Source of the DNA: an uncultured Puniceicoccaceae bacterium
GTDB lineage: Bacteria > Verrucomicrobiota > Verrucomicrobiia > Opitutales > Oceanipulchritudinaceae
Length of the DNA stretch: 64,000 nucleotides
Direction of reading: 5' to 3'
NCBI GenBank assembly: GCA_963933835.1
Contig: CAWVVV010000002.1
Location: forward strand, 128,001-192,000
Notes under the pieces: model-generated
Database searches by the model: none
The model's input: only the letters and a program-made list of their open reading frames with translations
Told to the model about the DNA's origin: nothing
Shown here: positions 30,295 to 34,223 of the stretch, piece after piece
How positions within the stretch are numbered: position 1 is the first letter of the stretch
How the letters are laid out: each line of letters begins with the position of its first letter
Position numbers and translations under genes: made by a program

Positions 30295-31812
30295 ATGGAC
30301 GTTGCTGTCGTTACAGGTGCCTCCTCCGGCTTGGGGTTGGCGATTTCGAATAAATTACTCAGCCTTGGGTTTAAGGTCTATGGTCTTGGGGGAAGCTACG
30401 GTGAAGACGGCCTGAAAAACTCAGGCTTCATTCCGATCAACTGCGACCTAGCTGACCCCGCCATGGTCGAACATATGGCCGGCGAGATCCTAAAAAAGGA
30501 GACCGCGATCAGTGTCTTGGTGAACAACGCCAAGTTCTACCCAGCAGAGTCCTTCACGGATGGAGCGGGCGGTGAGTTTGCCAGCTGCCTGAACATCAAC
30601 CTCCTCTGCCCACTCATACTCGCCCGAGCCTTTTTGCCCGGCTTGCAGAAGGTGCATGGTAAGGTCATCTCGATCAGCCCCGCTACCCCAGAAACCGCCC
30701 GCGGGGGACCCGCCGGAGCCGCAACCTCAGGTGGACTGCGATGGATGCAGGAAGTGCTTTTTCAGCAATACCGCGACGTCGGCGTTAGCTTCTCGACGAT
30801 CTCACCCGAGCCTAACCGCTGGCGCCCGGCCGATAGTCCGAAACCAAGAGGCAAAAAAGCAAAAAGCACGATCGACCCTGCCGCTATTTCTGACGCCGTG
30901 GCCCAAATCGTTCTTAACACGAGCGGCAACCTCATCACCGAGGTGGTCATCCGCCCAGAGCGTCTGACTGAGAACGGCCTGCCCGCTATGCGCGAGTTGC
31001 CGTATCCAAAGCCTCAACCGATCCCTTATACCGTTCCTCGCGAACTCATCGAAGCGGAGGAAATCGTTGAAAGGGAAGAGGAAGATCAAGAATTGCAGCC
31101 TAAACGCCAGCCGCGCAAAAAGCGGGCCCGCAAGCAAGCGAGAGCCGACGACGATCAGTCATCCGAGGACGCCACAGGGAACGAATCAGAAAGCCCTGAA
31201 AATACCGAAACAGAGGGAGAAGAAAGTCCCCCTCGCAGGCGCCGCAGGCGCCGCGGACGCAGGCGTGGTCAAGGCAGTGACGACAATTCAGAAACCCGCC
31301 GCGATGAACCGCGTCGCGATGATAACCGTCGCGACAGTGATGCTAAGCGTGACGCCCCTGTTGAGCGTCGCCGAAGGGAAGAAAAGCCTGCGGCGGACAA
31401 AGCGCCTCGCTCCGATTCGTCCGCTGAAGCGCCCGAGCAGTCCAGCGGAGACGCGAAGCCTTCTCGCCGTCGTCGCCGTGGACGTAAGCCACGCCCGATG
31501 GATGGCGCAGCAAAACCAGGATTCTTTGATCGCTCAAACGAAGCGCAAAGCGAGCAACCGAAGCCAAAAGATCCCGTAAAATCAGAAAAGCGGCCCGCTC
31601 AAAGCGACCGCTCTCCAAGAGCTGAAGATAAGCCGAAGAAAGCGGCCAAAAAGAGCGCCAAAAAAGCAGCGAAGAAGGCCGCCACAAAGGCGACAAAGAA
31701 AACTTCCGCGCCAAAAAAGAAGACAGCGAAAAAGGCTGCCACGAAGAAAGCGGCTAAAAAGGCGCCGCGGAAAAAAGTGGCACGGAAAGCGGTAGAGAAA
31801 AGCGCTGAATAA
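30295..31812 (+). CDS. Degenerate SDR-fold domain fused to a long charged low-complexity tail
   Basis: VVTGASSGLG, CDL, LVNNA, NINL typical of SDRs; YxxxK replaced by GAATS; tail with RRRRRRRGRRRG and KKAA repeats. Confidence 0.85.
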   Translation: MDVAVVTGASSGLGLAISNKLLSLGFKVYGLGGSYGEDGLKNSGFIPINCDLADPAMVEHMAGEILKKETAISVLVNNAKFYPAESFTDGAGGEFASCLNINLLCPLILARAFLPGLQKVHGKVISISPATPETARGGPAGAATSGGLRWMQEVLFQQYRDVGVSFSTISPEPNRWRPADSPKPRGKKAKSTIDPAAISDAVAQIVLNTSGNLITEVVIRPERLTENGLPAMRELPYPKPQPIPYTVPRELIEAEEIVEREEEDQELQPKRQPRKKRARKQARADDDQSSEDATGNESESPENTETEGEESPPRRRRRRRGRRRGQGSDDNSETRRDEPRRDDNRRDSDAKRDAPVERRRREEKPAADKAPRSDSSAEAPEQSSGDAKPSRRRRRGRKPRPMDGAAKPGFFDRSNEAQSEQPKPKDPVKSEKRPAQSDRSPRAEDKPKKAAKKSAKKAAKKAATKATKKTSAPKKKTAKKAATKKAAKKAPRKKVARKAVEKSAE

Positions 31813-31830: not shown

Positions 31831-32202
31831 ATGAACCTTCACGTCGTAGACTTCCCGCTCGCCGTCGTTCGTCTCGAACCGTCGGACCCTATCCCTGACT
31901 TCGCGCTCAAAAGCCCGTTCTTCTCGATTACGAAGACAGCCACTGAGCTCTCCCTCTTCCTCGCCGAAGACTGTGTTCCTGAGGGCATGGATGCTTCGAC
32001 GGGCTGGCGGGCGTTTCATATCGAAGGGACGATCGACCTCGGGCTCACCGGTGTCATCTCTGCCCTCACCATGCCTCTGGCCACGAAGCAAATCAGCGTT
32101 TTCTCCATTTCAACCCACGACACTGACTACCTCATCGTCCCCGACGACCGCCTTGAGGATGCCATCGAACTGCTCCAAAGAGCTGGCTTTCAGTGGGTGT
32201 AG
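31831..32202 (+). CDS. ACT domain protein (CASTOR/ACT_7-like)
   Basis: FFSITKT..ELSL, GLTGVISAL..PLA...ISVFSIST.DTDYLIV. Confidence 0.85.
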   Translation: MNLHVVDFPLAVVRLEPSDPIPDFALKSPFFSITKTATELSLFLAEDCVPEGMDASTGWRAFHIEGTIDLGLTGVISALTMPLATKQISVFSISTHDTDYLIVPDDRLEDAIELLQRAGFQWV

Positions 32203-32397: not shown

Positions 32398-33780
32398 ATG
32401 AACCGGGTGTATATTAAGACCTACGGGTGCCAGATGAATGAGCGCGACAGCGATGCGGTGGCTTCGCTCTTGCGCGATCGTGGCTACTCAATGGTCGGAG
32501 ACGAGGATGAGGCCGATATTATCCTCCTCAACACCTGTGCCGTTCGCGACCAAGCAGAGCAAAAAGCGATCGGTAAAACCCACCGGCTCCTCCATTATAA
32601 GAAAAAGGGCCGCGAACTCGTCGTGGGCGTCATGGGCTGCATGGCTCAAAATCGCGGCGAAGCCCTCCTCGACGAGCTCCCCGACCTCGACCTCCTCGTC
32701 GGCACACAAAAGTTCCACCGTGTGCCCGAGATGCTCGACCAGTTTGTCGCCTCGCAAAATGGCCTCGGCCCGCGCCCCAGCACGATCGTCGATCTGGAAG
32801 AAGAAGCCGGCTCCGAGGAAACGATCAAAGACCACGCCAACGTCCGGCAAGTCTCCGCCTTTGTCAGTATCATGCAGGGCTGTAACATGCACTGTAGCTT
32901 TTGCATCGTCCCCAAAACCCGAGGCGGCGAGCGCTACCGCTCGATGGAAGCGATCTGCGCGGAGGTTGAAGGGCTCGTTGCTAAAGGGACAAAAGAAGTC
33001 ACCCTCCTCGGGCAAATCGTAAACAGCTACGGGATGCGAGAGATCCCCTACCGCAACAGCAAGAGTCCCTTCGTCCAGCTCATCGATAAAGTCCACGAGA
33101 TCGACGGACTCGAGCGCATCCGCTTCACCTCACCCCACCCGCGCGGTTTCCAGAAGGATCTCGTCGCAGCGTATGGAGAGCTCCCGAAGCTCATGCCCTA
33201 TGTCCATCTCCCTCTTCAGAGTGGCAGCGACCGCATCCTCAAAGCGATGCGCCGCCCCTACACCGTGCGCCGCTTCCGCGAGATCGTTGAGCAGCTCCGT
33301 GCGGTGAATCCCGACATCTCATTCTCGACCGACATCATCGTCGGCTACCCCGGTGAAACCGAAGAGGACTTCGAGCAGACGCGCGCCTTCTTCGAAGAGC
33401 TGCGCTTCGAGATGGCCTACATTTTCCGCTACTCACCACGCTCAGGGACTAAATCAGCCGAGCTCGAAGACGACGTGCCGAGTGAAGTGAAAGCTGAGCG
33501 CAATCAAATCCTTCTCAAGATTCTCGAAAAACACTCCATCGCAGGGAACACCCTCAGTCATGGAAAGATCGAGCCCATCCTCGTCGAAGGCCCCGCCAAG
33601 CGCGGCGATGGCATCTTTGTGGGTCGCAATCCAAGAAACCGTAAAGTCATCTTCCCTGCCAATGAACGCCTTGTCGGCGAGATCGTCCCCGTCCGCATCG
33701 ACGACAGCAACATCTCCGTCCTCAAAGGCGAACTGGTGCTTTCCGGGATGAATGAAGCGCTCGTGAAGAGCGTGAGTTAG
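32398..33780 (+). CDS. miaB: tRNA-2-methylthio-N6-dimethylallyladenosine synthase
   Basis: TYGCQMNERDS, radical SAM CNMHCSFC, RFTSPHP, TDIIVGYPGET, YSPRSGT, TRAM domain. Confidence 0.97.
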   Translation: MNRVYIKTYGCQMNERDSDAVASLLRDRGYSMVGDEDEADIILLNTCAVRDQAEQKAIGKTHRLLHYKKKGRELVVGVMGCMAQNRGEALLDELPDLDLLVGTQKFHRVPEMLDQFVASQNGLGPRPSTIVDLEEEAGSEETIKDHANVRQVSAFVSIMQGCNMHCSFCIVPKTRGGERYRSMEAICAEVEGLVAKGTKEVTLLGQIVNSYGMREIPYRNSKSPFVQLIDKVHEIDGLERIRFTSPHPRGFQKDLVAAYGELPKLMPYVHLPLQSGSDRILKAMRRPYTVRRFREIVEQLRAVNPDISFSTDIIVGYPGETEEDFEQTRAFFEELRFEMAYIFRYSPRSGTKSAELEDDVPSEVKAERNQILLKILEKHSIAGNTLSHGKIEPILVEGPAKRGDGIFVGRNPRNRKVIFPANERLVGEIVPVRIDDSNISVLKGELVLSGMNEALVKSVS

Positions 33781-33794
33781 CGGTGAATAAGTTA

Positions 33795-34223
33795 TCTCAC
33801 AGGGGCACGGAGGCACAGAGATGAATGAAAATGAAATCGGTACGATCATTGTTGAGGTCTCGATCCAATTGCATCGAGACCTAGGCCCAGGGTTGCTCGA
33901 ATCTGTTTACGAGAAACTGCTAGAGAGGGGATTGGAAAAGCGAGGCCTTATCGTCCAGACTCAAGAGCCCATTCAAATCACTTACGACGGAGAAACGTTC
34001 GATGAAGGATTCCGTGCTGACATCATAGTCAACGGTAAGGTCATTATCGAATTGAAGTCCGTAGAGAAGCTGCACCCGGCCCACAAGAAACAGCTTCTTA
34101 CTTACCTGAAGCTCACCGGCCTAAAACTTGGTTATCTCCTCAATTTCGGTGAAGAGCTAATGAAGCAAGGCATCACTCGAACGATCAACGGCTCCCTTTA
34201 AAGCCCTCCGTGCCTCTGTGAGA
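33795..34223. mobile_element. Putative GxxExxY cassette bounded by 19-bp inverted repeats
   Basis: TCTCACAGGGGCACGGAGG (33795-33813) versus the reverse complement of 34205-34223, TCTCACAGAGGCACGGAGG; 18/19 identical. Confidence 0.55.
33821..34201 (+). CDS. GxxExxY protein (PD-(D/E)xK nuclease-like)
   Basis: LGPGLLESVYE, FRADIIV...VIIELKS, QLLTYLKL....GYLLNF. Confidence 0.95.
   Translation: MNENEIGTIIVEVSIQLHRDLGPGLLESVYEKLLERGLEKRGLIVQTQEPIQITYDGETFDEGFRADIIVNGKVIIELKSVEKLHPAHKKQLLTYLKLTGLKLGYLLNFGEELMKQGITRTINGSL

Follow-up and report, generated by a model that had tools for sequence, protein, structure and literature searches.

The Rossmann fold can be put to use outside canonical catalysis: NmrA, CSP41 and HCF173/HCF244 reuse it in sensing or RNA-related roles, and the NmrA-like and atypical SDRs, which are folds of the extended or atypical type, mostly keep cofactor binding. 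An SDR fold that has lost catalysis and kept a structural role is described, in the available part of the source, for BbsC of the BbsCD enzyme and for the beta subunit of petunia benzaldehyde synthase (BS-beta) (PMC13418739). Charged tails are known from other proteins. According to the available part of a study on Caulobacter RNase E, alternating charge blocks are needed for the formation of its foci, or BR-bodies, and the net charge per 10 residues of its tail reaches from 2 to 8 in either direction (10.1101/272286). An H1-like domain makes the Streptomyces protein DdbA bind and condense DNA, as stated in the part of the report available (PMC3643593). Each of the three elements, SDR pseudoenzyme, H1-like appendage and charge-blocked scaffold, is already known; their union in one protein, restricted to one bacterial order and with a traceable enzyme ancestor, had no description in the literature searched, which lay largely outside subscription journals.

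We analyzed a gene for such a protein of 505 aa in a window of 64,000 nucleotides (the whole stretch of DNA studied) from an uncultured Puniceicoccaceae bacterium. Like BbsC and BS-beta, as these are portrayed in the available part of PMC13418739, it has an SDR fold without catalysis, but those two sit in alpha2-beta2 enzymes together with an active SDR, whereas the protein studied here has no linked partner SDR (0 of 80 loci within 5 kb) and carries a long charged tail. The RNase E scaffold of the alpha-proteobacterial BR-bodies, so far as the source excerpt describes it, shares the combination of an oligomeric folded head and a disordered tail of alternating charge, both of which are predictions for our protein; in contrast to RNase E, the latter has no nuclease domain, no detected homology (low-complexity tails align poorly) and no degradosome partner known here. 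DdbA and the proteins of the Pfam family HC2 resemble our protein, in what the partial source conveys, in fusing pentapeptide-like Lys/Ala repeats to another domain. In our case, however, the carrier is a dead metabolic enzyme, the repeats score below the HC2 cut-off, and they occur in less than half of the wider family. From NmrA-like proteins it is set apart by its origin from a classical SDR, the lack of a Pfam NmrA match and a decaying cofactor site.

The Gene and Its Product

The gene is a single open reading frame with an ATG start and no internal stops. Its product consists of an SDR fold (residues 1-222) and a 284-aa tail, in which a conserved Pro-rich linker is followed by an acidic helix, alternating acidic and Arg blocks, and repeats of the KKAA type. 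The features of the gene and of its folded domain are as follows.

30295..31812, plus strand: whole gene for a 505-aa pseudo-SDR with charged tail (open reading frame and translation; same protein on 11 contigs)
30295..30960, plus strand: classical SDR (Rossmann) domain, residues 1-222, catalytic residues gone, predicted tetramerisation module (profile, alignment, AF2, fold and complex model)
30313..30336, plus strand: Gly-rich loop TGASSGLG, intact here and decayed in more than half of the family (sequence, row comparison)
30523..30534, plus strand: NNAK replacing NNAG; Lys in 118 and Arg in 2 of 120 close homologues (alignment)
30673..30681, plus strand: ISP, with Pro at the catalytic Ser position 129 (alignment to SDRs and intact sisters)
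30715..30729, plus strand: GAATS replacing YxxxK, in helix 5 and also in the predicted dimer interface (alignment, complex model)

All of the motifs listed in the preliminary description were found in the translation: TGASSGLG at residues 7-14, CDL at 50-52, LVNNAK at 75-80, ISP at 127-129 and GAATS at 141-145, and in the tail RRRRRRRGRRRG at 314-325, SRRRRRGRKPR at 390-400 and the KKAA/KKTA repeats at 448-505. The tail is real and a misassembly can be dismissed, since 11 contigs carry an identical copy of the 505-aa protein and a contig from an RNA library matches tail bases 31418-31629 with 0 differences. RNA data from two runs of one study contained short contigs over parts of the gene; these were small shares, for which DNA carry-over is possible, and they give no measure of the level of expression. 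We found neither a promoter nor a terminator on the gene's own strand at the locus, which is flanked by pyrF on one side and on the other by an ACT_7 gene followed by miaB. Database records label these proteins oxidoreductases, a label that is likely wrong. Pfam holds no dedicated family model, and the best 25 NCBIfam matches were all under the cut-off.

Loss of the Catalytic Residues

Residues 3-171 match the Pfam model adh_short (E 2.4e-19). Only adh_short and adh_short_C2 were recovered from Pfam at E<=0.1, with no NmrA-family match, and the comparison with NmrA drawn in the preliminary description is an analogy only, the domain being a classical adh_short SDR. An AF2 model computed from an 83-row alignment has the SDR 3rkr as its nearest solved fold (Z 28.1, rmsd 2.0, 207 residues); the entries of this fold comparison included the BbsCD structure (PDB 7pcs). 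Averaged over ten-residue blocks, pLDDT is 83-98 in the domain except for the loop 171-190 (73-78), about 75 in the linker, 77-87 in the helix 249-267 and 43-57 from residue 271 on; a confidently modelled SDR domain is thus joined to a tail of low confidence from about residue 271.

In pairwise alignments to solved SDRs, the catalytic Tyr corresponds to G141 and the Lys to S145. Position 129 is Ser in 100% of 37 intact sister rows and Pro in the 505-aa protein. The protein retains the adh_short/Rossmann fold and the TGxxxGxG loop of an active classical SDR and lacks YxxxK (G141/S145), the catalytic Ser (P129) and the NAG motif (NNAK). A search for close homologues with residues 1-255 returned 152 proteins of 277-884 aa, from which we built an alignment of 120 rows (119 homologues and the query). 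Position 141 is Gly in 119 of these rows and Ala in one, and position 145 is never Lys. A catalytic motif at a shifted position was considered and rejected: YxxxK is absent from residues 118-180 in 120 of 120 rows, and residues 126-150 contain no conserved Tyr in this alignment. The substrate-loop motifs GxFGPHE and FYD of the intact family are erased in the dead clade. Loss of catalysis is therefore common to the family, and so is the charged tail, 108 of the 120 rows being at least 400 aa long.

Decay of the Cofactor Site

We compared three groups of rows: 37 intact sisters, for which Tyr141 and Lys145 are the defining criteria, and 97 dead rows, made up of 42 rows of an NNAK clade (to which the 505-aa protein belongs) and 55 others. 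TGxxxGxG is present in all 37 intact sisters, in 30 of 42 NNAK rows and in 12 of 55 other dead rows (42 of 97 dead rows); among the 120 close homologues it is intact in 42. Within the 55 non-NNAK rows, position 10 of this phosphate loop is Asp or Glu in 55%. The Arg at position 33, which contacts the NADP 2'-phosphate, is found in 95% of the intact sisters; all 42 NNAK rows have Gly instead, with no substituting Asp. The 505-aa protein reads G32-G33 at the end of strand 2, where neither the NAD (Asp) nor the NADP (Arg) determinant is present. The sisters have Ser129 and, in 36 rows, xxAG; the NAG motif is kept in one of 97 dead rows. The nicotinamide segment P-D-x-T-x-T has likewise been lost in the dead SDR.

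The preliminary description took the domain for a dinucleotide sensor. As a statement on the family this finds no support, with Arg33 gone, NAG kept in 1/97 and the Gly loop in 42/97 dead rows, but the 505-aa protein itself has retained the adenosine half-site. It still possesses TGxxxGxG, D51, NNA and N102, and because this adenosine half is retained it could still bind a nucleotide. Within the 42 rows of the NNAK clade, conservation has newly arisen at K80 (95%), R136 (93%) and N174 (100%), and G137-G138 are near-invariant; in the alignment, this set hints at a site for a ligand or a partner.

Selection and the Predicted Tetramer

Purifying selection acts strongly on the dead domain. Across 71 related, non-independent pairs, the median Nei-Gojobori dN/dS was 0.049 in the domain (maximum 0.19) and 0.23 in the tail, and the low values hold in the clade with a broken Gly loop as well. 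Taken together with the decay of the motifs, this indicates a role for the domain other than that of a canonical dehydrogenase; taken together with the decay of the cofactor site, it argues against an NAD(P) sensor across the family.

A model with four copies of the protein reached an ipSAE of 0.87 in three runs, compared to 0.01 for the best of 3 controls. The runs shared at least 57% of their contacts, with a partner pLDDT of at least 79, and the modelled interfaces are helices 4/5 and the face formed by 160-165/189-225. In calibration, the mark set for a complex was reached by 20 of 30 solved self-pairs and by 1 of 23 single chains. The oligomeric scaffold envisaged in the preliminary description can accordingly be modelled as an SDR tetramer (0.87 versus 0.01), a result that may simply reflect likeness to the solved SDR tetramers. 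The interface positions P106, G146-L148, L155, F156, R160, G163 and P221 are conserved in all three groups of rows, so that predicted interface positions persist while cofactor positions decay.

The Charged Tail

30961..31038, plus strand: Pro-rich linker, residues 223-248, present in the dead clade and absent from short intact SDRs (alignments, AF2)
31039..31098, plus strand: acidic helix, residues 249-268, net charge -8 (AF2, charge count)
31099..31227, plus strand: basic block of net charge +9, then acidic block of net charge -12 (charge count)
31228..31269, plus strand: Arg block 1, net charge +10 (charge count)
31453..31497, plus strand: Arg block 2, net charge +9, ending in RKPRP, with a similar motif in 56 of 120 close homologues (charge count, motif search)
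31636..31809, plus strand: histone-H1-like Lys/Ala repeats, net charge +24 (repeat scan, charge count)

A mixed spacer separates the two Arg blocks, and another spacer precedes the Lys/Ala repeats; the linker is ordered and extended in the AF2 model. The tail is the longest stretch of low hydrophobicity among the 1872 open reading frames of the genome, and this reading frame alone passed a genome-wide filter for Arg blocks combined with a charged region of low hydrophobicity. Its charges are blocky (z=6.9 against 200 shuffles), the net charge per 10 residues running from -6 to +9. Family tails (99 sequences) are 84-606 aa long, with a median of 287. Charge blockiness exceeds z>2 against shuffles in 88 of them, and 98 are more basic in their last third than in their first. 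Of the 99 tails, 67 contain an Arg block, 45 at least three KKA repeats and 29 neither, while the Pro-rich linker follows a strict pattern in 54 of 99 and is visible more widely in the alignments. Split or tail-only forms were not found in a search with residues 222-300 against shorter proteins, which gave 1 candidate.

The likeness to RNase E and H1 noted in the preliminary description stands as one of composition; homology to RNase E tails was not detected. Tail homology was pursued and abandoned, the NCBIfam matches being only compositional and the Atlas scores at most 0.78, as was a structure match of the tail to an RNase E/G cluster (TM 0.18, meaningless). Pfam gave no HC2 match for the 505-aa protein, and two of four scanned homologues scored 25.5 and 32 bits, under the cut-off of 40. 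Five further open reading frames of the genome were flagged for Lys/Ala repeats: a sigma-70, a topoisomerase, a DksA-like protein, an RHH protein and a glucan phosphorylase, the last with merely scattered matches. Since such repeats are a frequent appendage in this genome, they may be incidental here. In the sigma-70, the DksA-like and the RHH protein (L224, L226, L227) the repeats are H1-like; the DksA-like protein has a DdbA-like layout, and the RHH protein runs off the contig end.

Distribution and Probable Descent from an Operon SDR

The search with residues 1-255 was unable to return proteins shorter than 277 aa, and we therefore took as the unbiased test an HMM search of representatives at 50% identity, with its best 150 matches and the query as 151 rows. 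Both Tyr and Lys are lost and the tail is at least 80 aa long in 99 of 151 rows; both residues are kept in a short protein in 40. Discordant rows are those that lost the pair and are short (8/151, mostly fragment-like) or kept it and are long (4/151). In the sequences compared, catalytic loss and tail gain are coupled and belong to one clade. The dead rows form one clade in quick trees of 148 rows (11 fragments dropped; SH-aLRT 97), of 140 rows without the motif columns (SH-aLRT 86) and of 64 rows (SH-aLRT 98).

Named records with a member of the family are from Opitutales, Puniceicoccaceae, Coraliomargarita, Lentimonas, Thalassobacterium and Ca. Moanabacter, which points to Opitutales as the source of the window too; named Thalassobacterium strains (L100, L120) carry the gene, the L100 copy with a loop of the TGAETPLG type. 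It is present in one copy in 71 of 201 Opitutales genomes searched and was not found in 130, nor was it found in several coded families; a tail peculiar to one strain, which the preliminary description had considered, is at odds with this single-copy family. All 13 genomes of the same family have the gene, in a single copy, and it was found in 27 of 41 relatives. The long form was not found outside the order in a 251-genome sample of the class. Re-searching 10 negative genomes loosely, at E 1e-8, gave only ordinary SDR matches, which end before the family linker or hit a stop; 5 genomes of family f19 were negative even with a divergent member as the query. In-frame stops within the SDR domain occur in a metagenome copy (L200) and in a genome match (G283:C4:136789-137442), either as occasional loss or as assembly error.

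In 21 of 79 dead-type genome loci, the dead gene lies directly after, and overlaps, an SPL-like radical SAM gene, upstream of which there is usually a phosphorylase-superfamily gene. Operons with a divergent phosphorylase-superfamily gene, an SPL-like radical SAM gene and an NADP-type SDR are widespread (e.g., L096:2756-5702, L126:2149-4764, L144); the SPL-like protein has an intact CxxxCxxC motif and scores far under both SPL cut-offs. In 80 metagenome loci fetched with the SPL-like protein, this gene is followed by a short intact SDR in 26, by the dead form in 11 and by an unclear fragment in 1; two have an unrelated SDR, 33 no SDR (as also seen after the phosphorylase and SPL-like genes at L127:4706-6545) and 7 end too soon. 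Twelve of the 26 intact SDR genes share with the dead ones an overlap with the SPL-like gene. The operon SDRs (L096, L126, L144) share fold, N-terminal sequence and predicted tetramer interfaces with the dead SDR and occupy the same slot directly after the SPL-like gene, but they are tail-less, measure about 230-245 aa and retain Ser, YxxxK, NAG and the NADP Arg. Short intact operon SDRs are the nearest tree neighbours of the dead clade, the exact sister not being settled in quick trees. From these sequences we infer that the dead clade descends from a short intact operon SDR that was converted in place, once, and that the operon was then lost. The SPL-like gene occurs in just 6 of 27 carriers, one of which has it in another operon that includes an intact SDR of its own, and the genome studied here (97% complete) has neither the SPL-like gene nor the phosphorylase. 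An obligate tie to the SPL-like enzyme was rejected on these grounds. On the parent operon, we found no paper in the literature searched, which lay largely outside subscription journals.

This record of an enzyme becoming a non-enzyme is unusually complete: the intact ancestor type, the operon and the gain of the tail can all be seen in living genomes. The decay is graded, from the catalytic motifs to the cofactor motifs, and selection is still strong.

Proposed Role and Alternatives

There is, in our estimate, an even chance that the protein is a non-catalytic, predicted tetrameric hub with four putative nucleic-acid-binding tails, likely tethered to the nucleoid and possibly forming condensates. 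The dead SDR would form a homotetramer through the two canonical SDR interfaces and hold four likely disordered, charge-patterned tails, which would bind nucleic acid without sequence specificity. The Lys/Ala end may tether the hub to the nucleoid, a function that such repeats have in other proteins, whereas binding to RNA and self-association may fall to the alternating Arg/acidic blocks; the Pro-rich linker and the acidic helix would likely dock on the SDR domain or on a protein client. The outcome would be a nucleoid-associated nucleoprotein scaffold or condensate. Several findings speak against this hub: an Arg block and a set of three KKA repeats are both missing from 29 of 99 tails, and tail length varies from 84 to 606 aa; a dN/dS of 0.05 and the near-invariant K80, R136, G137-G138 and N174 are more than a bare hub obviously needs; 130 of 201 genomes of the order gave no copy of the gene; and RNase E/G has the same length with and without the dead SDR gene.

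It is unlikely, although the 505-aa protein with its TGxxxGxG, D51, NNA and N102 would suit the idea, that members of the NNAK subclade bind NAD(P)(H) or an ADP-containing ligand in the half-site and thereby switch the activity of the tail, with K80 in place of the YxxxK lysine. K80, R136 and N174 are newly conserved in the 42-row clade, and the migrated catalytic lysines of pseudokinases, as presented in the available part of PMC10211241, set a precedent for such a replacement. Set against this are the losses of the 2'-phosphate Arg, Y141, K145 and the P-D-x-T-x-T nicotinamide segment, a Gly loop that is intact in just 42 of 120 close and 12 of 55 distant homologues, many of the distant ones having Asp or Glu in it, and the fact that members with a broken loop still maintain the domain, the linker and the tail, with selection of the same kind. 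No more probable is a BbsC-like non-catalytic subunit or adaptor that pairs with an active SDR, the SPL-like enzyme or another client, while the tail only localises it. SDR pseudo-subunits of this kind exist in BbsCD and petunia BS-beta (per the available part of PMC13418739), an overlap with the SPL-like gene, seen in 21 of 79 dead loci, would fit, and the conserved Pro-rich linker and acidic helix resemble docking elements; yet a second SDR lies within 5 kb in 0 of 80 loci, the SPL-like gene is present in 6 of 27 carriers and missing here along with the phosphorylase, and the modelled self-tetramer scores high.

Very unlikely, in our judgement, is an atypical enzyme that uses another catalytic set (K80, N102, N174, R220) on a substrate not named, the tail being an accessory. 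Several polar residues never vary among the 120 close homologues and dN/dS is as low as in enzymes, but K80, N102 and R220 are not kept across the wider clade, residues 126-150 have no conserved Tyr, and the GxFGPHE and FYD motifs are erased. The patchy presence of the gene and the in-frame stops in the L200 and G283 copies might also suggest that the operon SDR is decaying and that its remnant bears a functionless, low-complexity tail gained by read-through. This we regard as scarcely credible: dN/dS values of 0.05 (domain) and 0.23 (tail) largely refute it, the gene is present in a single copy in 13 of 13 same-family genomes with a conserved order of tail blocks, and it has been retained in this 1.94-Mb genome.

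A more specific form of the hub, in which the dead SDR tetramer, as a stand-alone condensate scaffold converted from a metabolic enzyme, would supply in trans the charge-blocked tail for RNA binding that Opitutales RNase E/G lacks and so build nucleoid-tethered RNA bodies, strikes us as doubtful. RNase E/G of this genome has 579 aa and ends with a thioredoxin-like domain and no C-terminal scaffold. Among 150 of about 200 matches listed, the RNase E/G frames are mostly 567-651 aa long with and without the gene, and four are shorter (424-510 aa). Complementarity with RNase E was rejected, as this similarity in length leaves no pattern. Since a tail-less RNase E/G is also found in genomes of the order that do not have the gene, its lack of a tail is an opportunity and not evidence. 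Should the tail build nucleoprotein condensates, a metabolic enzyme that has lost catalysis would have become a bacterial scaffold, and this in an order in which RNase E/G lacks a long tail for scaffolding.

Neighbouring Genes and Other Loci

31831..32202, plus strand: gene for an ACT_7 protein, 18 nt downstream of the 505-aa gene (Pfam)

The ACT_7 gene adjoins the family gene in 17 of 80 loci; it is possibly co-transcribed with the 505-aa gene and is a candidate partner at most. Within 5 kb of the family gene, miaB (window 32398-33780) is found in 24 of 80 loci and a recA-like gene, named by eye, in 28 of 80 (L043-L122), which is probably plain synteny. A small gene of the PD-(D/E)XK_3 family (window 33821-34201) lies between miaB and conserved downstream genes.

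Elsewhere in the genome, a stand-alone, low-complexity protein rich in Arg and Asn and without a Pfam match is encoded upstream of a murA-like gene (L223:1493-2374; G000:C2:460992-461873, minus strand). An amphipathic-looking segment precedes its Arg-rich part, a layout that presumably resembles the membrane-targeting sequence and RNA-binding region of RNase E. The tail-less RNase E/G gene is located directly upstream of an RNase Y-like gene with KH and HD domains (L229, L230; G000:C2:311757-315041). The genome also contains two Rho-like genes (L124, L125), one of them with a long low-complexity N-terminal extension.
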